Shown: positions 1,226-37,269 of the stretch, piece after piece
Position numbering within the stretch: the first letter of the stretch is position 1
Layout of the letters: every line of letters starts with the position of its first letter
Virus record (IMG/VR): IMGVR_UViG_2526164669_000027
From: a virus
Lineage: Duplodnaviria; Heunggongvirae; Uroviricota; Caudoviricetes
Reading direction: 5' to 3' (one strand)
DNA: 48,145 bases
The notes under the pieces: model-generated
Databases searched by the model: none
The model's input: only the letters and a program-made list of their open reading frames with translations
What the model was told of the DNA's origin: nothing
Made by a program: the position numbers and the translations under genes

Positions 1226-3340
1226 TTACTCGATGCGCACAAACAGACACGCATAACCATACTGACCGAGTGTGGTGGTTGCATTTTGCCCTGACAGCGC
1301 CATGTATCGACCGGGAAAACCAGCACATGCGCCTGATGAGCCCGGGGTGCCGACAAGGAATCGTGGATTTCCGGTAAAAATCCCGGTATCACCGGCACTG
1401 CAGAGTATTGCCAGTGGGCTGAGTCGTGAGCCCTGAACAACGTCACCCTGGGCTATTTTTTTATCGTCGTCGTTGAGATGGAGTCCCCGGTACACGGCAA
1501 AAATCGGGACGCCAACCGCCGGATATTTGTAGTATGAGGAGGAGTCAGTGCCTGCTGTTCTGGACAACAGGAACGCCAGCGAATCGCCGTCGTAAATAAT
1601 GGGGCTTACTGTTGCATTCCAGTTGTTTCCACTCCAGCGATAAGTCAGGCGATGAATACTGTGCTCACCTTCGTAATACTGGTTAAAACACAGCAGCGTT
1701 TTGAATTTGCGCGTCGTGTCTGACTCGTCGTTATCAAAGGGTGACCACATCACATCAATGATGCCGTTAAATTTCGTGGTGCCCGCCAGTAGTGTGGAAG
1801 AGTCCGCAATACTGACCGCATAACGCCCCGGGGTGGCCTCTTTCAGCCATTCAGCAAAATCGGCCTGTCCGTTAAATGTCAGGGCTTCGGTGCTGGTAAA
1901 TGCCTGACCGAACCCATGCATACCGGACAGTGCCAGCCTGCCCGGTGTACGGTCGCGGATATCGCTCTGGGGTTCCATCGTCGCAGCCGCTTTCAGTTCA
2001 AGCTCCGTGCGCATGGCCTCAGACGTGTCCAGCGCCAGTAATGCGCGGGCTTTTTCTGACAGTTGCGCCAGTAAAATCCGGCCCTCTGCACTGAAATAAG
2101 GCAGTGTGTTTTCTTCCGGTGTTATCTGGCTGACAGCCGTTAACACGTCATTAAGCGGCTGTTTACCTGCCAGTGCTTTAGTGACGGTTGTCGCAAAGTT
2201 CGGGTCATTACCCAGCGCCGCTGCCAGCTCGTTCAGTGTGTCCAGGGCTTCCGGTGACGAGTCAACCAGTGCGGCAAGCAGTTTGCGGACAAAAGCAGCA
2301 TTCGCTGTTTCCAGACCAGCAGCATCATCCGGTGGTGTTGGTGTGGTTGGCGTGCCGGTGAATGCCGGGCTGTCCAGCGGCGCTTTTGTTTTCATCTCGT
2401 CCATGACGGTTTTGACAGCCTTTGGTGTGGCAGCCAGTTCTTCGCTGTCGTTATCCGTATCACTACAGAGTTGCACCAGGCCTTTTTGCGTCGTGCTGGC
2501 GTTGGTTCCCTTCAGGTCATCAACTATCCGTTGCGCCTCGTCCCTGTGCTGTTTCGCGCTCTGCTCGCTTTTGGCAGCCGCTTCGGCGCTGGCTTTTGCC
2601 TCGCCGGTCAGCGTTGCGGCATCAGCAAGTTTATCGAGCGCTTTCTGGACTATCGCGTCAGCATCCTTGACAGCCTGCTCTGCGCGGGCGGCATCCTGTG
2701 TGGCAGATGATGCCAGGAGCGCCACCTGATTTTTATCTTCGGCAACGGCTTCTGCATTCTGCTGTACGTTATCCGCCAGCGTCTGGCAGTCGCTCTTAAT
2801 TTGTTGCGCATCAGCGACATGTTGCCCGGCCTGTCGTTCGCTTTCTGCAGCGGCTTCGGCATTTTGCTGTGCCTGATTTTTTAGCTCTTCTGCATTATTT
2901 TTACTGTCAAGAGCAGAAGTCGCTGCGTTTGTTGCCGTCTCCGCTGCCGCCTCTGCTCTTTCACGATCATTGGTGACCTGCTCCGACTGCCGGGCAACCG
3001 CATCCACCATTTCCTCAAAGCGCTTCATCACCTCCGGACGTAAATCACCATCCTTTGGTGCATCCAGAAACGCGTTAAGTGTCCCCGGTGCATCAGTCGG
3101 TGCCACATAAATATCCCCGACACGGGTTGGCTGCCAGCCGTTACGGTGAAGCGCAACCTCGTAATACCCCGGCTCAGCCTCAATCACATAAGCACCGTTA
3201 TTGTCCGTCACACAAGTGGCAACAACGTGTGCCACAACGGTCGGACTGGTTCTTCTGGCTCGCAATTCAATCGCACAATTTACGACAGGTTTACCCGCCC
3301 CATCTTTCAGTACACCTGAAATCTTTACTGCCATATTCAC
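1226..3340 (-). CDS. stf: side tail fibre protein (Stf-like), 704 aa
   Basis: Position between lom and tfa; long Ala/Gln/Glu-rich coiled central region and C-terminal fibre-tip domain. Confidence 0.8.
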   Translation of the reverse strand: MNMAVKISGVLKDGAGKPVVNCAIELRARRTSPTVVAHVVATCVTDNNGAYVIEAEPGYYEVALHRNGWQPTRVGDIYVAPTDAPGTLNAFLDAPKDGDLRPEVMKRFEEMVDAVARQSEQVTNDRERAEAAAETATNAATSALDSKNNAEELKNQAQQNAEAAAESERQAGQHVADAQQIKSDCQTLADNVQQNAEAVAEDKNQVALLASSATQDAARAEQAVKDADAIVQKALDKLADAATLTGEAKASAEAAAKSEQSAKQHRDEAQRIVDDLKGTNASTTQKGLVQLCSDTDNDSEELAATPKAVKTVMDEMKTKAPLDSPAFTGTPTTPTPPDDAAGLETANAAFVRKLLAALVDSSPEALDTLNELAAALGNDPNFATTVTKALAGKQPLNDVLTAVSQITPEENTLPYFSAEGRILLAQLSEKARALLALDTSEAMRTELELKAAATMEPQSDIRDRTPGRLALSGMHGFGQAFTSTEALTFNGQADFAEWLKEATPGRYAVSIADSSTLLAGTTKFNGIIDVMWSPFDNDESDTTRKFKTLLCFNQYYEGEHSIHRLTYRWSGNNWNATVSPIIYDGDSLAFLLSRTAGTDSSSYYKYPAVGVPIFAVYRGLHLNDDDKKIAQGDVVQGSRLSPLAILCSAGDTGIFTGNPRFLVGTPGSSGACAGFPGRYMALSGQNATTTLGQYGYACLFVRIE

Positions 3341-3398
3341 CCCACAAAAAAGCCCGCCTGAACCGGCGGGCTGTCATAACACTGTGTTACCTGGCTAA

Positions 3399-3998
3399 TC
3401 AGAACTTATAACCGACACCCATGATGAAACCGTCAGTGCGCCAGTCGCCACTGCCGGAGCCTTCATAAGCAATATCAATGGCCACGGATTCGGTCGGGTT
3501 AAACTGCACGCCAGCTCCCCACGCCAGAGACGTGTTGCTGTGGCGACCGTCATCACTTCCGGTCAGCACATCGTGCGTTTTCCCCTTGTTGTCAGTTACG
3601 CGGAGATAATCTCCGGAGAAAGTCGAAACACGGCTGTAAGCCATACCCGCCATCGCATACGCGCTGAACCATTCATTCACGCGCACAGACGGCCCCGCCA
3701 TTACGCTGAACCCGCGGTTACGAACGGAATCTTCATGCCAGCGGGTATCGCTGTAGTGCGTTTTTTGCTCATCTTTGGCATTGGCATAACTGAATGACGT
3801 CACAACACCCAGCATGTCCGTAAACTCATAACGGTATTTCACGTTAATCCCGTTCAGATCATCACTACCGGGAACGTTCGTCGAGGCATGGAGATACCCC
3901 GCGCTCAGCGTGGACTGATGTTCTGCTGCACTCGCTGGCGTGGCAGCGGCGACCTGCCAGACTACTGCGGACAAAATAACAGCACATAATTTACGCAT
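3399..3998 (-). CDS. lom: Lom/Ail-family outer membrane beta-barrel protein
   Basis: 199 aa, signal peptide, C-terminal ...GVGYKF typical of the Ail/Lom family; sits downstream of J as in lambda. Confidence 0.9.
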   Translation of the reverse strand: MRKLCAVILSAVVWQVAAATPASAAEHQSTLSAGYLHASTNVPGSDDLNGINVKYRYEFTDMLGVVTSFSYANAKDEQKTHYSDTRWHEDSVRNRGFSVMAGPSVRVNEWFSAYAMAGMAYSRVSTFSGDYLRVTDNKGKTHDVLTGSDDGRHSNTSLAWGAGVQFNPTESVAIDIAYEGSGSGDWRTDGFIMGVGYKF

Positions 3999-4065
3999 AA
4001 TTACCTCTCGCTTTTCTGCAATAAAAAAGGCGCCATTTCTGGCGCCCGTATCTGGGTTATAAAAT

Positions 4066-17646: not shown

Positions 17647-19263
17647 TTACGGCATACTCATCAGCAGTTCTTCTTCCCCGTTCCCGGCAGTTCCGCCACC
17701 GGAAACGGCACTGGCGGCATGCTGTGCCATGAAGCGCTCAAAAAGTGTTACCTGTGACGGTTGCGATACTGATGGCGCAGCTGCCAGCAGCGTTTTCGCC
17801 TGCTCCACTGTCATTCCAGGTTGTTCAGCCAGCGCCTGTGCCAGTTTTTCGCGTCCTTTTGCTTCCGGCAACGCAATAATTTGATCGCCGGTACTTGCCG
17901 TACCGGTTGCCGGTGCCGCTGCCAGTAGCATTTTCGCCTGTTCCACCGTCATTCCCGGCTGTTCAGCCAGCGCCTGTGCGAGTTGTTCACGCCCTTTAGC
18001 TTCCGGCAACGCCATAATCTGCTCGCCGGTACTTGCCGCACCGGCAACCGGTGCCGCTGCCAGTAACGTTTTCGCCTGCTCCACCGTCATTCCCGGCTGT
18101 TCAGCCAGCGTCCGTGCCAGTTGTTCACGTCCTTTTGCTTCCGGAAGTGCCACAATCTGATCGCCTGTGCTGTCAGTACCGGCAACCGGTGCTGCCGCCA
18201 GTAATGTTTTTGCCTGCTCAACTGACATTCCCTGCTGACCTGCCAGCATCTGCGCCAGTTTTTCGCGTCCTTTCGCCTCCTGACAATTCAGGATCCCCAT
18301 CACGCGCTGATTTTCCTGGGACACCGCTTCAGCAACGGTGAGATTTTTTGTTGTCATCGTATTCTCCTGTGTAACAGAGTCGTTCAGAGCAGAAACCATT
18401 ACATCAACGGCATCTGCAGCATTAATCAGTTGATCAGCCAGGCCTGTATCAATGCCTGCCTGACCGTCATAAACGGCAGCCTCAGTATTCATCACCACCG
18501 CTGAACTCAGCCCCGTATAAAGTGCCACCTTGTCGACAAACATCCGGCGGGCCTCATCAATACGGAGCTGAAAATCCGCACGCACACCTGTCGGCAACGC
18601 CTGAATACTGTTGCCGTCAACCTTGTGCTGCCCGGAGTAAATCAGCGTGATATCCACGCCTTCCTGTGCCAGTTGTTTCTCGTAACTGGTGTGCGCCATC
18701 ATCACACCAATCGAACCAATTTTTGCCGTCTGCGTGACCAGCCGACGCGTACAGGCCGCCGCCAGCAACATGGCGGCTGAACAGGCCATGTCATTACACA
18801 GCGCCCACACGGGCTTCTGTTCCCGCAGACGGTAAATCATGTCAGCACAGTCAAACGCCCCGGCAGCCTGACCGCCCGGACTGTCGATATCCAGTAAAAT
18901 GCCGCGTACATCCGGGTCGTTCACCGCTGACTTAAGACGGGCAGTCAGACCGTCATAACCGGTCATACCGGAATATGGCCGCAGGGTACCCATTTTATGT
19001 ACCAGCGTGCCGCTCACCGGCAGAATGGCAATACCATTTTTCACCTGGTAACTCTTTACCGGACGCGGACCACCAGTCATATAATCGGTAACCGCCAGCT
19101 GCATACCATCGGCATCAAGCTGAACGGCCTGCTGCGGAACGGCAAGGCTGCCCGCCCCCATCTCCTTACCCAGTGCGCAAAAGAAAACCCGCGCATAGGC
19201 GGGTTCCAGTAAAAGCGGCTCATTAAATGCCATCGCGGCAATATGTGATAAATTACAGCGCAT
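17647..19263 (-). CDS. C: head maturation protease / scaffold protein C (S49 peptidase family, Nu3-like C-terminal part)
   Basis: N-terminus ..HIAAMAFNEPLLLEPAYARVFF.. matches lambda C; C-terminal part carries four in-frame 46-aa repeats. Confidence 0.85.
   Translation of the reverse strand: MRCNLSHIAAMAFNEPLLLEPAYARVFFCALGKEMGAGSLAVPQQAVQLDADGMQLAVTDYMTGGPRPVKSYQVKNGIAILPVSGTLVHKMGTLRPYSGMTGYDGLTARLKSAVNDPDVRGILLDIDSPGGQAAGAFDCADMIYRLREQKPVWALCNDMACSAAMLLAAACTRRLVTQTAKIGSIGVMMAHTSYEKQLAQEGVDITLIYSGQHKVDGNSIQALPTGVRADFQLRIDEARRMFVDKVALYTGLSSAVVMNTEAAVYDGQAGIDTGLADQLINAADAVDVMVSALNDSVTQENTMTTKNLTVAEAVSQENQRVMGILNCQEAKGREKLAQMLAGQQGMSVEQAKTLLAAAPVAGTDSTGDQIVALPEAKGREQLARTLAEQPGMTVEQAKTLLAAAPVAGAASTGEQIMALPEAKGREQLAQALAEQPGMTVEQAKMLLAAAPATGTASTGDQIIALPEAKGREKLAQALAEQPGMTVEQAKTLLAAAPSVSQPSQVTLFERFMAQHAASAVSGGGTAGNGEEELLMSMP
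17775..18310 (-). repeat. four tandem in-frame 138-bp repeats within gene C
   Basis: Marker GCCAG(C/T)A(G/A)CGTTTTCGCCTG recurs at about 17783, 17921, 18059 and 18197 (138-bp period); protein repeat EAKGRE(K/Q)LAQ..PGMTVEQAKTLLAAAP. Confidence 0.8.
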
Positions 19264-31262: not shown

Positions 31263-31504
31263 CAGCGCAGTACCTCCTGCACCAGTTTTTCAAACTTTCC
31301 AACTTTGGTTTCCAGCTCTGCCACACAATCCACCAGCTCATCCACTGCTTTTTGTGCGCGGTGTTTCGCCTGCATCAGTTCCCTGAGCGCTGGCACCATA
31401 TCCTTACGAATGGCATCTTTTGTTACACCTGTTTTTTCCAGTTGTTCCGCCTGTCGCAACATTTCCTGTGCCTGTTTACGTAATTTCTCAGGGGTAAAAG
31501 TCAT
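31262..31504 (-). CDS. hypothetical coiled-coil protein (about 80 aa)
   Basis: Between the helicase gene and Q; stop overlaps the Q start. Confidence 0.45.
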
Positions 31505-31515
31505 TATCTGGTTGT

Positions 31516-32916
31516 TCAAAAGAAACGCTCCATCTTACTGCTGTCAGTTCGTTTGTTACTGTATCTGCGCGGTCTGGACGGCTGCATTGATGTGGAAAGA
31601 ACCTGCGCGCTTTCCTGGTCTACAGGCAGAAAATGTCCGTTATAAAAACGTCGGTAAATCGTCCCCAGAGAACCATTACGTTGCTTCGTGATATTAATTT
31701 CTGCGATGCCTCTGGCCTGCGTATCCGGGTTGTACACTTCATCCCTGTAAAGCATCAGAATGATGTCAGCATCCGCCTCTATTTCTCCGGAATTTTTCAG
31801 GTCTGAGTTCATGGGACGTTTATTTGGTCTGGACTCCACACCGCGGGAGAGCTGACTCAGCGCAATCAACGGAAAACCACCGGATTTTGCCAGGCCTTTA
31901 AGCCCCTTTGAGATTTCACCCACGGCAAGGTCATGACGCCCCGTGGTTCGGGTTTTTATCAGCCCGAGATAATCAACCACCACCAGTGCCGTTTCCGGAT
32001 GTTTAATCAAATGGTGTTTCGTTGTTACGCATATCTCGTCAATGGTCAGGTTCGCCTGGTCCACCATCCAGATATTGCGTCCGGTCATCAGCTCCACACC
32101 CTTAATGAAACGCGCCCAGTCTTCGTCACCAAAGTTAGAGACAGATTTCAGGCGCGATACAGGCATTCCTCCGGCAGCAGACACCATGCGTTCACCGATC
32201 TGAATGTTCGCCATTTCCATTGTGAACAGAAGAACACCGCGCCCCTGTTCAGTCACTTTGTCGATGATATCCAGCGCCAGTTCTGTTTTCCCCATCGAAG
32301 GGCGCGCCGCGATGAATATCAGGTCGCCGGGCTCCATGCCTCCTGTTTTTGCGTCCAGCTCATCAATACCGGTCATCAACGTCCTGGATTTCTCCAGCCC
32401 CTGATTCCGGCATTCAACACGGTCAACCACCTCCGGAAGTACATCATCAATGTGTACAGGCTGAATAATGCCCTTTTCGGTCGACAATGAGACCATCATG
32501 TTTTGAGCATCCTTCAGGGCATCTTCAGCTGCTTCACAGGTATGCGCATCACGTAATTTCTGCAATGCTTCGGCCAGTGTTTTTTCTGCATCACGCAGTG
32601 CGGCATTGCGTCGCAGTGCTGCAACATAGTGTTCCAGAGATGACTTCACCCAGGTTTTACGCCCGGTATCAGTAATCACCGGGGCAAGTTCCGGCATCTC
32701 ATTGCACAACAGCACAGGATCAATCACGCCGGACACACGGGCCTGTCTGCAGATGCCTGTGTAGATATCCCGGTACGGTCGTACAGAAAAAACGTCCGCC
32801 GGTAGTGTGGCCAGAATATCCATCACTTCCGGATCTGCCCCACGCAAAAAGAATGCGCCAATAACAGCACCTTCCAGATCATCGTTACGCCAGACCGGAC
32901 TGTTCTGGCTGATCAT
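31516..32916 (-). CDS. replicative DNA helicase (DnaB family)
   Basis: 466 aa with Walker A ..GGRPSMGKTELALDI-like segment (ARPSMGKT) and DnaB-like C-terminal motifs. Confidence 0.9.
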   Translation of the reverse strand: MISQNSPVWRNDDLEGAVIGAFFLRGADPEVMDILATLPADVFSVRPYRDIYTGICRQARVSGVIDPVLLCNEMPELAPVITDTGRKTWVKSSLEHYVAALRRNAALRDAEKTLAEALQKLRDAHTCEAAEDALKDAQNMMVSLSTEKGIIQPVHIDDVLPEVVDRVECRNQGLEKSRTLMTGIDELDAKTGGMEPGDLIFIAARPSMGKTELALDIIDKVTEQGRGVLLFTMEMANIQIGERMVSAAGGMPVSRLKSVSNFGDEDWARFIKGVELMTGRNIWMVDQANLTIDEICVTTKHHLIKHPETALVVVDYLGLIKTRTTGRHDLAVGEISKGLKGLAKSGGFPLIALSQLSRGVESRPNKRPMNSDLKNSGEIEADADIILMLYRDEVYNPDTQARGIAEINITKQRNGSLGTIYRRFYNGHFLPVDQESAQVLSTSMQPSRPRRYSNKRTDSSKMERFF

Positions 32917-33800
32917 GCTGCCACACCTCCGGTATGTGCCCGGTAGCTGGGCCAGTTGAAGGACAACAGGTTACGGCCACCATCCGTAACCCTGTCAGCA
33001 ATACGTGGACTGATGTATGCCCACAACGCCTTCGGTGAAAGATTGCTGATCAGGATGGTTGGCAGAATACTTTCGTACCGGGCATTGATAATTTCCTGAA
33101 GAATGGCCATTTCCGCCGCGCTACCAAACTGGACACCCACTTCGTCGATAATCAGCAGATCCAGTGATGCATAATGCTCAATCACCTCATCCGCAGTTTT
33201 TTCGCTGTCATTCCGCCAGCAGTTTTTCACAGCCCGGGTCAGGCGCATCACGTCGGTGATCTCAACACTGGCGAGATAGTTGCGGATGACATATTTTGCC
33301 ATCGCAACCGCCAGGTGATTTTTCCCGGTGCCACAACTGCCAGTCAGCACGAGATTTGTGCCGTTCTCCAGAACATCCGCCCAGTTTTCGGCATAGCGAC
33401 GACAGGCAGCAAGATTTCTGGCTGCGTCAGGATTAATCTCCTGATAGTTTTCAAACTCACAGTCACGAAAACGCAGTGCAATTCCGGCGTTATCAGTCAG
33501 TTCTTCCGCCTTCAAGGACGACAACTCCATAATCACATCGTTGATTTCAGCACTCAGGCAGTGAGGGCAGTGTGAAATTTTCTCTCTGTCCTCGCCATTA
33601 CGATCCCCCCACACCAGAATATGCGTGTGATATTCGCCATGTTTTTCGCAATATCCGCGACCTTCACGCATCCGGCAGGAACGATAAGGCCACGGTTTTT
33701 CCCCAGTCTCCGCAAACGCCATCTCAGACCGTAACTCATCCATCCGCGCCTGTAGTCTTGTTTGTTGTTCACGCAGGTTAAACGTCATCATCGCTGTCAC
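32913..33800 (-). CDS. helicase loader (DnaC/IstB-like AAA+ ATPase) with Cys-rich N-terminal region
   Basis: Walker A LVLTGSCGTGKNHLAVA and Walker B LLIIDEVG; ATGA overlap with the helicase gene. Confidence 0.85.
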   Translation of the reverse strand: MTAMMTFNLREQQTRLQARMDELRSEMAFAETGEKPWPYRSCRMREGRGYCEKHGEYHTHILVWGDRNGEDREKISHCPHCLSAEINDVIMELSSLKAEELTDNAGIALRFRDCEFENYQEINPDAARNLAACRRYAENWADVLENGTNLVLTGSCGTGKNHLAVAMAKYVIRNYLASVEITDVMRLTRAVKNCWRNDSEKTADEVIEHYASLDLLIIDEVGVQFGSAAEMAILQEIINARYESILPTILISNLSPKALWAYISPRIADRVTDGGRNLLSFNWPSYRAHTGGVAA

Positions 33801-33801
33801 C

Positions 33802-34794
33802 TCAGAATGTTAAGTTGTCACTGGATTTACCGAATTCGTCAGACATGGCACCAAGACCAGACAGGATATCTATCTGTCGCTGTCGCCCACCTCCGGGAGC
33901 GGCTGGCTGTTGCCAGAAATCTTCGAAGTGACGATCGGGTCCAAAAAACGTCGCGGTCTGCTTCACGAATTGTGTGCCGGTATTTCCTGTGGCACGTACC
34001 CAGGCGGCATAACGCCTCACGCCATCAAGCATGGTTTCGGGTGTCACACCTTCCCTGATTCGGGCTTTCCAGGCTTTGAAGGCTGCCGACTTGGAATTAC
34101 CACCAGCACGTTTGGGGTATTCCTGCCAGGCCTGTTCAAATTCCGGTGAATATTCCTGTCGGGCAGAACGCGCTGGTGCAGACGCGTCAGCGGATGCGCC
34201 AATAGTGTTTTTAGTCTCCGTTGTAATCTCTGTAGTAATCTCTGTATTTGTATCAACATTCGGCGTATCCCCTGTTCCGTTATGACGTTGGGGGGTGTTC
34301 CGTTTTAACGTAATAGCTGTGTCGCTGACTGTGTTATTGCTGTTACTTTCTGACGAAACAGAAGAAGGTGTGGTGATGGCAGCAATTGCCTGTGGGTTGA
34401 TCCCGACAAACAAAATATTGCTGCATTTCACACCATCGAGCATTTCCACAGTGCGTAAATCCAGGGTAATAAAACCGGCATCCCGCAGACGCTTCAGCGC
34501 ATCTGCAGTTTCCCTTTTCCCGAAACCAAACTGCTCAGCAAACGCCTGATAGCTTCTTTGCAGCTTGTCCCCCTGAAAACGCTTGCGATATCCCAGCAAA
34601 GCCCCGGTATGCTCATCCCGGACTTCTGTCGGGCGGTACCAATAAACGATCTCTGAGAGCAGGGCGATAGCGGTCGCATCCGGACGACCACTGGGTAGCC
34701 GAATATGTTTCCACCAGTTCGCTGGTGTGACATTGCCGGAAATATTAATTTGACCAATAGCTATAACTTCCGGTGTGGGGGCGTAACGACTCAT
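33802..34794 (-). CDS. replication initiation / replisome organiser protein (lambda O analogue)
   Basis: Position immediately upstream of loader and helicase; internal direct repeats (iteron-like) in the middle of the gene. Confidence 0.8.
   Translation of the reverse strand: MSRYAPTPEVIAIGQINISGNVTPANWWKHIRLPSGRPDATAIALLSEIVYWYRPTEVRDEHTGALLGYRKRFQGDKLQRSYQAFAEQFGFGKRETADALKRLRDAGFITLDLRTVEMLDGVKCSNILFVGINPQAIAAITTPSSVSSESNSNNTVSDTAITLKRNTPQRHNGTGDTPNVDTNTEITTEITTETKNTIGASADASAPARSARQEYSPEFEQAWQEYPKRAGGNSKSAAFKAWKARIREGVTPETMLDGVRRYAAWVRATGNTGTQFVKQTATFFGPDRHFEDFWQQPAAPGGGRQRQIDILSGLGAMSDEFGKSSDNLTF
34223..34246. repeat. iteron-like tandem repeat GTAATCTCTGTA x2 inside the O-like gene (putative origin)
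   Basis: Two perfect 12-bp direct repeats followed by a partial third (TTTGTATC); encodes ..TEITTEITTE.. Confidence 0.5.
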
Positions 34795-35090
34795 ACAGCC
34801 TCCTTACGCGGCATAACAATGGTGTAACCCCGGGCAGGCTGGAACCGGGCTTTTACATCAATAGTGAGCGTTGCAATTTTTCGGATACGCAGATACCCCG
34901 CCCTTTCCAGGGCCAGGGTTTCTCTGAACATTGCCTGTTTTGAACAGCAACAAAAATCGGCAAGGACCTGGTGATCAATAACCCTCTCACCTTCACCGTC
35001 TGAAGAACCCGACATCAAAACACGCAACATAATCAGGCGCTGAATCGGATTATCGAAAACACTTCCGCATACAAACTGAAAACAGTTCAC
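34791..35090 (-). CDS. hypothetical protein with winged-helix-like segment (99 aa)
   Basis: ATGA-type overlaps with both flanking genes; ..ETLALERAGYLRIRK.. Confidence 0.5.
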   Translation of the reverse strand: MNCFQFVCGSVFDNPIQRLIMLRVLMSGSSDGEGERVIDHQVLADFCCCSKQAMFRETLALERAGYLRIRKIATLTIDVKARFQPARGYTIVMPRKEAV

Positions 35091-35311
35091 ACGGCACCTC
35101 CCAGGCGTTTAAACATTTTTCCGGACTGAAACACCGCCAGTGGGTAGCTAATGGTGTAGTTACGCCCCAGTAATTCACACACAACTTTCTGGTTTTCGGT
35201 GCTGACCAGACAAACCCGCAGAACGTGACCGTTGCTGGTGGCGAACCACTGCCCCACACGGGGGCAACGGTTGTATCGGTGATACAGGGAATTAACGACG
35301 CGGCGAATCAT
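35087..35311 (-). CDS. hypothetical protein (about 74 aa)
   Basis: Start MIRRVVNSLYHRYNRCPRVGQWF... overlaps the stop of the upstream paralog. Confidence 0.4.
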   Translation of the reverse strand: MIRRVVNSLYHRYNRCPRVGQWFATSNGHVLRVCLVSTENQKVVCELLGRNYTISYPLAVFQSGKMFKRLGGAV

Positions 35312-35964
35312 GGGCGCACCTCCCATTGATTACGACGGAAAGCGGTGTGACTGAGACTGGTTTCAGTTTCATGGAATGCTTCAATGCAGCTCTCGTAGTA
35401 CCGCATTGTGCGCAGACTTAACCCAAGCTGAAGCATCATCAGGCCATCAAGGGTGATGTAATAACCACGCAGGGAGTCACCATAGATGTGATAAGTACCC
35501 GGTATGAAATTGCGGGTAAAAAACTCGCGTGAGCAGTTCAGATACTCGATTTTGTCGACGATGTTCTGGTGCATGCGCTTGAAATGGCAGGCTACATGCA
35601 AAGAGAAAATAACGGTCTTACCGTTAATAATCTCAATTTTGAGGAATGGGTGGGTAGTGGTGGTAGTCATGGTGACAGCCCCTATGTTGAATTCAAAGAA
35701 CTCACCACATGGGACGCCAATCACAGAGGTGGTGAGACGTACAGGGTTGGCGTAACCGGTCAACATAGAACCCGGCGCATCTTGCGATGCCCCTGCACGC
35801 CCCACCATAATTTGGGCGTAGCAATGCTCATGACACGAAAAAACCGCATGAGCGCGGTTATGCTCTATATTGAATTTCAGGACGCCAATCCCGGCACCCG
35901 CTTTATAAGGTGCAGAGACAGTGTAACGTCCCAAAAGTGCAGAATCAATATGTTGGCGAATCAT
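35308..35964 (-). CDS. hypothetical protein, paralog B (about 218 aa)
   Basis: MIRQHIDSALLGRYTVSAPYKAGAG...; C-terminal 110 aa near-identical to the upstream copy; coupled to flanking genes. Confidence 0.6.
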   Translation of the reverse strand: MIRQHIDSALLGRYTVSAPYKAGAGIGVLKFNIEHNRAHAVFSCHEHCYAQIMVGRAGASQDAPGSMLTGYANPVRLTTSVIGVPCGEFFEFNIGAVTMTTTTTHPFLKIEIINGKTVIFSLHVACHFKRMHQNIVDKIEYLNCSREFFTRNFIPGTYHIYGDSLRGYYITLDGLMMLQLGLSLRTMRYYESCIEAFHETETSLSHTAFRRNQWEVRP

Positions 35965-36600
35965 GGGCGCACCTCCCATTGATTACGACGGAAAACAGTG
36001 TGATTCAGGTTGGTTTCAGCCTCATGGAATGCTTCAATACAGCTCTCGTAGTACCGCATTGTGCGCAGACTTAACCCAAGCTGAAGCATCATCAGGCCAT
36101 CAAGGGTGATGTAATAACCACGCAGGGAGTCACCATAGATGTGATAAGTACCCGGTATGAAATTGCGGGTAAAAAACTCGCGCGAGCAGTTCAGATACTC
36201 GATTTTGTCGACGATGTTCTGGTGCATGCGCTTGAAATGACAGGCAACATGCAGAGAGAAAATAACGGCCTTGCCGTTGACGACTTCGATTTTGAGGAAT
36301 GGGGAAGTTGGGACAGTAGCCATGATGGCAGCCTCCGTATGCAATGGATAACTTCCACCACCGGAGCTGCGAAACTCATGGGTGGTGAACTGAACAGGGT
36401 TCGCAGTACCGGCGCATACGGAAACCGGCGAGCCTTTCGGCCCCCCTGCCCAGCCCACCATAATTCTGGCGTGCGTGAGCGCGGACGATAAAAAAGACGC
36501 TGGCGCGTCATATATCGCCGTATGCAATTCCGGGCTGCGACCCCCGGCACCCGCTTTATAAGGTGCCGGAACAGTGTAACGTCCCGAAATTGCAGAATCA
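35961..36600 (-). pseudogene. paralog A of the 218-aa protein; no in-frame ATG/GTG/TTG at the position equivalent to the paralog B start (possibly 5'-truncated)
   Basis: Homology to paralog B starts near 36600 (..STQCIDSAISGRYTVPAPYKAGAG..); upstream frame runs antisense through the toxin-antitoxin genes. Confidence 0.4.
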
Positions 36601-36635
36601 ATACATTGTGTGGATATAACAATTTTGTTATCTTT

Positions 36636-36971
36636 ATGGACATGAACTACACTATCGAATACTACAGTGAAGAGGTCAGGCTGGAGGTCGACCAGCTTCC
36701 ATTGAGTATGCGTGCCCGATACCAGCATCTTGTTGAACGCATGAAGGTATATGGCAGCAATCTCGGAGAACCTCATACCAGTGCTTTCGGTAACGGGCTT
36801 TTCGAGCTTCGGATTAAAGGCAGCGATGGCATCGCACGCGTCTTTTACTGCACCCTGGCAGGAAAACGCATCATCATGCTGCATAGTTTCATCAAGAAGA
36901 CCCAGAAAACCCCACCAGCCGAACGCCAAAAAGCTGAAACCAGAATGAAGGAGGTAAAGCATGACTGGTAA
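36636..36971 (+). CDS. type II toxin, RelE/HigB-like (phage gp49-type)
   Basis: MDMNYTIEYYSEEVRLEVDQLP...FELRIKGSDGIARVFYCTLAGKRIIMLHSFIKKTQKTP: size and motifs typical of gp49/HigB-like toxins; overlaps the downstream HTH gene by 11 nt. Confidence 0.75.
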   Translation: MDMNYTIEYYSEEVRLEVDQLPLSMRARYQHLVERMKVYGSNLGEPHTSAFGNGLFELRIKGSDGIARVFYCTLAGKRIIMLHSFIKKTQKTPPAERQKAETRMKEVKHDW

Positions 36972-37269
36972 ACGTAATCCGCCAACCATTACACATGATG
37001 AAATGGCTGATAAATGGATGGAGGATCCAGCTTTTAAAGCAGAATACGACGCCATCGCCGACGAATTTGCGTTGCTTGATGAAATGCTGGCAGCACGTAA
37101 AGAAGCTGGTTTAACCCAGGCTGAGATCGCTGAGCGTATGGGAACCAAAGCAACTGTCATCAGCAGAATGGAAAGTAATCTGGCGTCAGGTGTCAGTGGA
37201 CCATCATTTTCCACACTGAAAAAATTTGCCCGCGCAACAGGAAAAAAACTCCAGATCCGCTTCGTGTAA
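36961..37269 (+). CDS. HTH (XRE-family) antitoxin, HigA-like
   Basis: ..EAGLTQAEIAERMGTKATVISRMESN.. helix-turn-helix; coupled to the toxin gene. Confidence 0.75.
   Translation: MTGKRNPPTITHDEMADKWMEDPAFKAEYDAIADEFALLDEMLAARKEAGLTQAEIAERMGTKATVISRMESNLASGVSGPSFSTLKKFARATGKKLQIRFV

Follow-up and report, generated by a model that had tools for sequence, protein, structure and literature searches.

In the bacteriophages lambda and P22, the replication origin lies inside the initiator gene itself (gene O and gene 18, respectively), in the DNA that encodes the linker between the domains of the protein. Both follow the order N-domain, dyad-symmetric iterons about 20-24 bp apart, AT-rich tract and C-domain, and the AT-rich tract of lambda is the site of initiator-induced unwinding, O being able to bind AT-rich single-stranded DNA (PMC7466680). 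Here we report the analysis of a similar locus in a 48,145-nucleotide stretch, called the window below, of a virus of the Caudoviricetes (IMG/VR record IMGVR_UViG_2526164669_000027). Its replication initiator gene harbors in the linker region a tandem array of 12-bp units, directly preceded on the gene strand by direct repeats phased at 22-23 bp, and the order on that strand is the same as in lambda and P22: N-domain coding region, phased repeats, AT-rich array, C-domain coding region, followed by the genes of a helicase loader and a helicase. This anatomy makes an in-gene origin likely, and the iterons that bear its specificity are most likely the phased repeats rather than the 12-mers.

The annotation of lambda lists four iterons followed at once by ACACAAAAGACACTATTACAAAAGAAAAAAGAAAAGATTATTCGTCAGAGAATTC in the AT-rich tract in the middle of gene O, whereas the replication origin annotated in gene 18 of P22 consists of TCGGTAAAAC iterons, then ACAAAAGACAATAT ACAAAAGACAATAA. 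Directly after the last iteron, both phages thus present tandem ACAAAAGACAnTA units of 14-15 bp resembling the ACA(G/A)AGAnTAC of the window, whose unit differs in being 12 bp long, far better conserved and variable in copy number. The best matches in lambda O to the weight matrix built from the relatives described below (7.4, 4.0 and 3.1 bits) fall in its AT-rich tract, but the match is weak and gives only a hint of common ancestry. The partners differ as well, since the phage of the window encodes a DnaC-like loader and its own DnaB-like helicase, where lambda has P.

Similar arrangements occur outside the lambdoid phages. Short repeats are found in the unwinding elements of oriC, RK2 and other replicons, where DnaA, TrfA, RepE or RctB bind them sequence-specifically as single-stranded DNA (PMC10797057). 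Like the array of the window, the 13-mers of oriC, the four 13-mers of RK2 oriV and the DnaA-trios are short tandem repeats placed beside the double-stranded sites of the initiator, in the least stable segment; the element of the window has another sequence and is embedded in coding DNA, where it constrains the linker codons of the initiator itself. Unlike for the sites of RepE, TrfA and RctB, unwinding and single-stranded DNA binding are proposed for it by analogy. The oriL of phage SPP1, located in gene 38 (G38P), is close in layout, with in-gene iteron-like GAAAmGACAC repeats followed by AT-rich 12-bp AACAATGAwAAC repeats, and the C-domain of G38P is DnaD-like, of the class that recruits helicase loaders, as in the initiator of the window. 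Since both SPP1 repeat sequences are unrelated to those of the window, oriL was not retained as another instance of the motif. In Gram-positive bacteria, plasmid replicons of the RepA_N type (e.g., pSK41) combine a winged-helix N-domain, central origin repeats within repA and a host-specific C-domain. These are plasmid replicons, whereas the window belongs to a phage, and Pfam RepA_N matched neither the window protein nor 45 representative relatives.

A tandem array fused to phased repeats

The preliminary description of the window had noticed that GTAATCTCTGTA is repeated twice in tandem with a partial third copy, reading TEITTEITTE within a replication gene, and on both points the sequence agrees. 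The exact copies lie at 34223-34234 and 34235-34246, and a degenerate third unit at 34211-34222 reads TTAGTCTCCGTT (reverse complement AACGGAGACTAA). Tandem Repeats Finder delimits the array at 34215-34246 (period 12, 2.7 copies, 90% matches, score 50), one of four arrays with a score of at least 40 in the window, and the minus-strand translation gives ...NTEITTEITTETKN... at residues 183-196, which includes TEITTEITTE. The window holds a single exact 12+12 tandem, and one of 300 first-order Markov simulations produced such a tandem. In the weight matrix, the three units score 20.7, 20.7 and 10.2 bits, the maximum elsewhere in the window being 12.4.

Directly 5' of the array on the gene strand, the stretch 34246-34358 can be divided in 22-23-bp steps into five slots carrying direct repeats (TACGTTAAAACGGAACA, AACGTCATAACGGAACA and others). 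The best members of this repeat family, named D1, are ACGTTAAAACGGAACA and ACGTCATAACGGAACA, 23 bp apart, with a weaker TCGTCAGAAAGTAACA 45 bp further on. As 23 bp is not a multiple of three, the two best copies stand in different frames, and the 16 bases that they have in common read QRHNGT in one and TLKRNT in the other, which marks a DNA repeat and not a peptide repeat. The iteron consensus of relatives from Serratia, Yersinia and Xenorhabdus, TACGTTNRAACGTAAC, was built from other species and finds its best match in the window at 34297-34312 with one mismatch, and another at 34342-34357. The site around 34250 fails this 16-mer pattern, yet it is homologous to the last iteron of the relatives, such as TACGCCGAAAAGTGAGACGTAT in a Rosenbergiella locus (L212). 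Indeed, a box AAnGTrrGACrwAT, which forms the right half of each lineage's last iteron, precedes the array in nearly all of the 64 species with a tandem array described below. With a phasing of about 22 bp, independence from the reading frame and co-variation with the lineage of the N-domain, the stretch 34246-34358 has the properties expected of iterons.

The array also occupies the weakest part of the duplex. The GC content falls to 0.317 at 34200-34259, compared to about 0.5 in the flanks, and by nearest-neighbour energies no other stretch of 45 or 60 bp, be it in the gene or in the replication module as a whole (31500-35400), is less stable than 34209-34253 and 34201-34260, respectively, which rank within about the top 1% of the 48 kb. 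An AT-rich segment of lowest stability directly beside the initiator sites is what an unwinding element should look like. The features of the locus are collected in Table 1.

Table 1. Features of the candidate origin and of the replication module; repeat sequences are given on the gene strand.
Feature	Position	Strand	Basis
Replication initiator gene, 330 aa	33802-34794	-	Open reading frame list; PHROG 270 match; winged-helix N-domain, repeat-bearing linker and DnaD/DnaT-like C-domain
N-terminal winged-helix DNA-binding domain, coding region (about residues 1-138)	34381-34794	-	AlphaFold2 model, profile search
Candidate iteron, distal, TTTCGTCAGAAAGTAACAGCAAT	34336-34358	-	Third D1 member; TACGTTNRAACGTAAC with 3 mismatches; 22-23-bp phase
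Phased slot, degenerate iteron-like AACACAGTCAGCGACACAGCTAT	34313-34335	-	Phasing only; weakest element
Candidate iteron TACGTTAAAACGGAACACCCCCC	34290-34312	-	Family D1; best match of the window to the relatives' consensus
Candidate iteron AACGTCATAACGGAACAGGGGA	34268-34289	-	Family D1, 23 bp from the previous copy
Putative last iteron or junction box TACGCCGAATGTTGATACAAAT, fused to the first 12-mer unit	34246-34267	-	Homology to the relatives' last iteron
12-bp tandem array, units TACAGAGATTAC, TACAGAGATTAC, AACGGAGACTAA	34211-34246	-	Tandem Repeats Finder, weight matrix
AT-rich segment of lowest duplex stability, proposed unwinding element	34201-34260		GC content, nearest-neighbour free energy
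C-terminal domain coding region, module common to Stx1/Stx2 phages and phiP27	33802-34167	-	megablast, protein identity
DnaC/IstB-like AAA+ helicase loader gene	32913-33800	-	Pfam IstB_IS21 E 4.6e-16; Bac_DnaA
DnaB-like replicative helicase gene	31516-32916	-	Pfam DnaB_C E 1e-71; DnaB N-terminal domain

We favour, with moderate confidence, the reading that the phased repeats are the specificity iterons, whereas the 12-mer array is the constant AT-rich opening segment of a lambda-like in-gene origin, at once entry site of the helicase and joint between modules. The initiator gene would carry its own origin in the DNA of the inter-domain linker, as does lambda O. The winged-helix N-domain probably binds the phased and partly dyad-symmetric repeats (core TACGTTnnAACGGAAC), and the array (unit TACAGAGAnTAC), fused to the last iteron, would be the constant part of the origin. 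The iteron-bound initiator would then open the duplex at the array, its least stable AT-rich segment, where the DnaC-like loader and the DnaB-like helicase of the phage would enter. The base-by-base conservation of the unit, irrespective of phylum and GC content, makes its sequence-specific recognition probable, possibly as single-stranded DNA by the initiator, in the manner of RepE, TrfA and DnaA. As an array common to otherwise unrelated alleles, it also acts as the joint at which the N-domain with its iterons and the C-domain module recombine, and slippage makes it expand and contract. The sequences themselves show the anatomy, the conservation at the DNA level, the company of variable iterons, the low stability of the duplex and the mosaic joint, from which binding by the initiator, unwinding and loading of the helicase are inferred.

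The identity of the replication gene is clear, as the initiator matches PHROG 270 'replication initiation protein' with an E value of 1.8e-76, its residues 176-311 match PHROGs named 'DnaD-like helicase loader' and 'primosomal protein', and the DnaC-like loader and DnaB-like helicase genes follow downstream on the same strand. The low-complexity linker that holds the array extends over about residues 139-210. An AlphaFold2 model of the N-terminal 140 residues presents a winged-helix topology (mean predicted local distance difference test score 89.2), with which Foldseek returned generic winged-helix matches only; similarly, a sequence search of the PDB with the initiator gave only weak matches to helix-turn-helix proteins of the GntR type. 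The initiator has no Pfam match at E <= 0.01, Phage_rep_O included, and belongs to no NCBIfam family. The gene had been called O-like, a name that suits its architecture but not its family, since the profile of the N-domain compared to lambda O reached an hhalign probability of only 0.3%. Matches to PHROGs named 'O-like' are weak (E 1.5e-6) and cover residues 73-208, a stretch that includes the linker. Of the traits of a Phage_rep_O member, an origin placed between the domains is seen in the sequence anatomy alone, whereas the sequence match and a loader of the lambda P type are lacking.

Just upstream, a 99-aa open reading frame (ORF; 34791-35090, minus strand) ends 4 bp inside the start of the initiator gene and matches the first 93 of the 223 positions of PHROG 4617 'replication initiation protein' (E 3e-28). 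It was rejected as a homologue of the N-domain family of the initiator (hhalign probability 0.5%) and could represent either a winged-helix protein that stands alone or what is left of a displaced initiator gene.

Mosaic joints and distribution of the unit

The relatives of the initiator allow the N-domain, the iterons and the array to be followed separately. The 80 closest IMG/VR loci encode proteins 86-100% identical to that of the window, an identity that makes iteron conservation among them uninformative. They are near-identical in the linker apart from the number of 12-bp units, which is one in a single locus (L019), two in most, three in several (L053, the L068 group, L077) and four in L062, so that the array expands and contracts by slippage.

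The sequence is mosaic exactly at this place. Searches of phage genomes with megablast gave matches that cover only 33802-34245 of the window, in Shiga toxin (Stx1 and Stx2)-converting phages, and about 33802-34205 in phiP27, so that the homology with the Stx phages stops right at the array. From residue 165 to the end, the Stx1-phage protein shares 88% identity with that of the window, whereas the relationship between the two N-domains is remote (hhalign probability 34%, 18% identity). The Stx1 phage LC567819 harbors four GTAwTCTCTGwA units with GGnTTTCCC..TCCGCG iterons spaced by 23 bp 5' of them; phiP27 is devoid of the 12-mer and carries other repeats. An allele of the mEp460 type shares with the Stx phages a single 40-bp island, at 97.5% identity, that contains the array. 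Because the homology with the Stx phages starts exactly at the array, the N-domain and the sequence 5' of the array have been exchanged independently of it. The compared sequences thus indicate that what lies 5' of the array travels with the N-domain and that the array is common to otherwise unrelated alleles.

On the contrary, where the N-domains remain similar the iterons do too. In a metagenomic locus (L083) and an Arsenophonus locus (L085) with N-domains 64-72% identical to that of the window, repeats of the ACGTTnnAACGKAAC type about 23 bp apart precede three copies of TACAGAGAyTAC; TACGTTnnAACGTAAC-like iterons and array are thus kept together in these relatives, whereas divergent N-domains come with unrelated iterons and the same array. 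In L083 itself (N-domain 72% identical), the ORF leaves the frame of the C-terminal replication protein at an A7 run around 1330-1340, shortly after the array, by assembly error or natural frameshift.

At a larger scale, a pattern scan of IMG/VR with ACAGAGAYTACWACAGAGA retrieved at least 120 loci. In 118 of the 120 loci listed, the motif is read ACA GAG AyT ACw within an ORF of about 250-400 aa, at a distance of some 140-200 codons from its start. It stands directly 3' of three to six evident iterons in more than 100 viral contigs, in AT-rich and GC-rich contexts alike, and these iterons vary by family (GGTCAAAATG.., GGGCAAATTGCAC.., CTACCCAAAATGGGTAG, GATTCAGGGAAAGTCAGAATCTA and others). The protein parts N-terminal to the repeats nearly all fall into one blastp single-linkage cluster (95 of 98 among the loci listed), whereas the C-terminal parts form 21 clusters; accordingly, Pfam recognised C-terminal domains only (Phg_2220_C, DnaB_2, HNH, DnaA_N) in the 45 representative relatives. 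The PHROG names of the motif-bearing proteins include 'replication initiation protein', 'O-like' and 'DnaD-like helicase loader'.

Because the pattern scan itself selects for the motif, a second sample of 80 loci from as many species was built from GTDB genomes with an alignment restricted to the N-domain (A2), for which a word-indexed protein search, yielding mostly fragments, served as seed only. These loci range from 0.28 to 0.64 in GC content and their N-domains are 40-70% identical to that of the window. Their hosts include Enterobacterales (Serratia, Yersinia, Xenorhabdus), Marinomonas, Acinetobacter, Rickettsiales and many Firmicutes, as well as Cyanobacteria, Chloroflexota, Armatimonadota, Atribacterota and the actinobacterium Slackia. 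At least two tandem units were present in 64 of the 80 species, 157-233 codons past the start of the match, and 13 more had a single unit. The resulting weight matrix reads T-A-C-A-(G/a)-A-G-A-n-T-A-C, where eight positions carry 1.5-1.9 bits each and position 9 carries 0.3. Of 107 intervals between units, 90 measure 12 bp, 11 measure 13 bp and four measure 11 bp. Similar N-domains share an iteron type, such as TACGTTnnAACGTAAC in Enterobacterales, and other lineages carry others; over all the relatives compared, units similar to TACGTTnnAACGTAAC accompany N-domains 60-72% identical to that of the window.

The family is large. A profile of the IVYWYRP-type N-domain matched 2,762 cluster representatives (clustering at 50%) at E <= 0.001 and 1,548 at E <= 1e-30, and the tandem is visible at the peptide level, near residue 179, in about half of the top full-length members. 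Although spread over many phyla, the N-domain family is without a Pfam or NCBIfam model, as judged from the window protein and, for Pfam, also from the 45 relatives. Full-text searches of open-access papers for the motif strings and for TEITTE returned nothing relevant, an absence that is weak evidence. A paper on Stx phages of the Eru type mentions neither origins nor iterons. The 'P27' of the Wegrzyn group was considered as phiP27 (AJ298298) and rejected; as a phage of the lambda O type, it offers no experiment on the initiator family of the window.

In two loci of Firmicute-type integrative elements (L086, at 3001-4003, and L087), a 211-aa N-domain ORF ends just past the array, which is read in another frame (..YKEYYRKYRGDY..), and a separate DUF6017 ORF starts there. 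The TENTEEIT frame continues into the DUF6017 ORF, downstream of an A6T4 run. These loci carry either a frameshifted or split initiator or an origin at a gene junction.

What the unit is conserved for

Among the other explanations, we regard as unlikely that the array is no unwinding element at all and forms either a double-stranded site for another conserved factor (a host protein, the loader or the helicase) or mainly a recombination linker. In favour of such roles stand the high information content at nine of the 12 positions and the island of near-identity between unrelated alleles, exactly at mosaic boundaries. Nevertheless, with hosts as distant as Rickettsiales, Firmicutes and Cyanobacteria, and with C-domains, and thereby partner proteins, divided among 21 clusters, the N-domain family itself is left as the sole constant partner of the array. 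Selection for exchangeability alone is also unlikely to hold one motif across phyla, and both the position of the array and its low stability fit an unwinding element.

The repeat might otherwise matter as protein only, as a flexible or functional (TEIT)n linker peptide, with the DNA repeat as a by-product of slippage devoid of any role in cis. The almost constant frame noted above, which holds for 149 of 171 units, speaks for such a peptide, as do T188, E189 and T191, invariant or nearly so in a 45-sequence alignment, and a length polymorphism in multiples of four codons. On the contrary, codon usage argues against it. When arrays from 40 species were detected by their peptide alone, as two or more consecutive (TxxT) units, ACA encoded the first Thr in 84 of 86 cases, compared to 39% in the remainder of these ORFs, GAG encoded Glu in 57 of 59 (41% in the remainder; Fisher p = 2e-19), and codon 3 ended in T in 82 of 86. 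The encoded residues vary meanwhile, E alternating with K in the second place and I with N or T in the third, and low-GC genomes present ACAAAGA (Lys) and not ACAGAAA (Glu), changing GAG to AAG at the cost of a charge reversal rather than to the synonymous GAA. Units spaced by 11 or 13 bp occur in intact ORFs, and in several intact ORFs (L241, L240, L283, L096, L104, L116, L172) the first unit is read YRDY and the next TExT. As synonymous sites are more constrained than residues and a shift of frame leaves the unit intact, it is the nucleic acid that is under constraint, and we consider a purely peptide-level role quite unlikely.

It had also been proposed that the 12-mers are the iterons bound by the DNA-binding domain of the initiator and set the specificity of the prophage origin, by reference to the iterons of lambda O. 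They are indeed direct repeats within the linker region of an initiator gene, and they are tied to one N-domain superfamily, of which a conserved surface could in principle bind them. The comparison with related phages retains from this proposal the in-gene origin and the lambda- and P22-like layout, with its linker position and its iterons followed by an AT-rich stretch, whereas the 12-mers are unlikely to be the iterons bound by the initiator. The 12-mers cannot define specificity because an identical array adjoins unrelated iterons and divergent N-domains (LC567819, the mEp460 type and more than 100 IMG/VR contexts), down to N-domains of about 18-20% identity. Moreover, copy number varies from one to four among near-identical alleles, the units are contiguous at 12 bp, whereas typical iterons of 17-23 bp are spaced by 20-24 bp, about two helical turns apart, and in the Stx phages the mosaic joint keeps the array on the side of the C-domain module. 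The co-variation with the DNA-binding domain that is absent from the 12-mers is found in the separate set of phased repeats, and direct initiator specificity at the 12-mers appears very improbable.

Least credible of all is a constraint on the mRNA, as a regulatory or processing site or a primer-forming transcript, since, even if codon data cannot separate DNA-level from RNA-level constraint and the array keeps a constant orientation relative to transcription, the Rfam scan matched no family at the array, the predicted fold of 34190-34370 is no better than that of shuffled sequences (z = -0.64) and leaves the array unpaired, and no promoter-like site was found nearby.

Several observations weigh against an opening segment flanked by specificity iterons. 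The candidate iterons of the window are fewer and weaker than those of many relatives, two being good, two moderate and one degenerate. When stretches of 30 bp are considered, it is 34740-34769, near the start of the gene, and not the array that is least stable within the gene, and the unit of the array is only moderately AT-rich (67% A+T). Pure melting needs no such conservation, so that the true role of the array may be the binding of a factor. The sampled species are not phylogenetically independent, and the array has been transferred horizontally, as seen from the 40-bp island. The near-constant frame and the conserved Thr and Glu residues suggest that some protein-level constraint may coexist with that on the DNA. 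Finally, origin activity may map elsewhere than this sequence anatomy suggests.

Neighbouring elements and significance of the motif

The window contains further repeats and mobile elements. Upstream of the replication genes, a direct duplication (35302-35601 and 35955-36254, spacing 653 bp) comprises 300 nt at 96% identity plus 88 nt at 82%, with associated features at 35725-35812, 36378-36465, 35837-35913 and 36490-36566. A C4 antisense RNA scoring about 80 bits is encoded in each copy, together with isrK, an Hfq-binding RNA (59-62 bits), and the whole resembles a c4-ant unit of the P1/P7 type, involved in antirepressor control, of which two copies stand shortly upstream of the replication genes. 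Between the duplicated c4/isrK units, two overlapping ORFs on the plus strand (36522-36971 and 36961-37269; 149 and 102 aa) look by their translations like a pair of the toxin-antitoxin type, of which the second contains a sequence resembling a helix-turn-helix. The start of a 295-aa transposase-like ORF (37973-38860, minus strand) is overlapped by an ALIL pseudoknot (38789-38905, 120 bits), which is the frameshift element of the IS3 family, and together they point to an insertion sequence upstream of the replication module, at a distance of a few kb. Inside a 538-aa ORF (17647-19263, minus strand), a tandem repeat of 138 bp, or 46 codons, extends over 17780-18280 (3.6 copies, 84% matches, score 659), and a tRNA-Gly gene (anticodon TCC; 27517-27589, minus strand) lies inside the prophage-like region.

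For this prophage, the likely determinants of origin specificity are moved from the 12-mers to the neighbouring phased repeats. A constant DNA signal at the array would explain why mosaic joints fall there, and the odd conserved 'TEITTE' peptide would be a by-product of that signal. The favoured reading predicts that origin fragments of phages with different initiators share an interchangeable opening module.

We also put forward, as a tentative possibility, that the ACAGAGAnTAC units form a previously undescribed, sequence-specific second recognition element of a very large superfamily of winged-helix initiators in phages and integrative elements, devoid of a Pfam model and including the IVYWYRP type as one subfamily, whereby the iteron-bound initiator would capture one strand of the array to open the origin. 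If true, this strand-capture element would be the counterpart, in the phage world, of the DnaA-trio or of the single-stranded DNA site of RepE, and a recognition element conserved from Rickettsiales to Firmicutes would dictate the (TEIT)n codons in the initiator's own gene. Should the initiator indeed read the array as single-stranded DNA, the family would offer a tractable model of DNA opening by iteron-type initiators. At a broader level, a single short DNA motif seems to flag the origin in thousands of initiator genes, otherwise without annotation, of phages, prophages and integrative elements, and it may provide a sequence handle for finding these origins, with the iterons expected just 5' of the motif.

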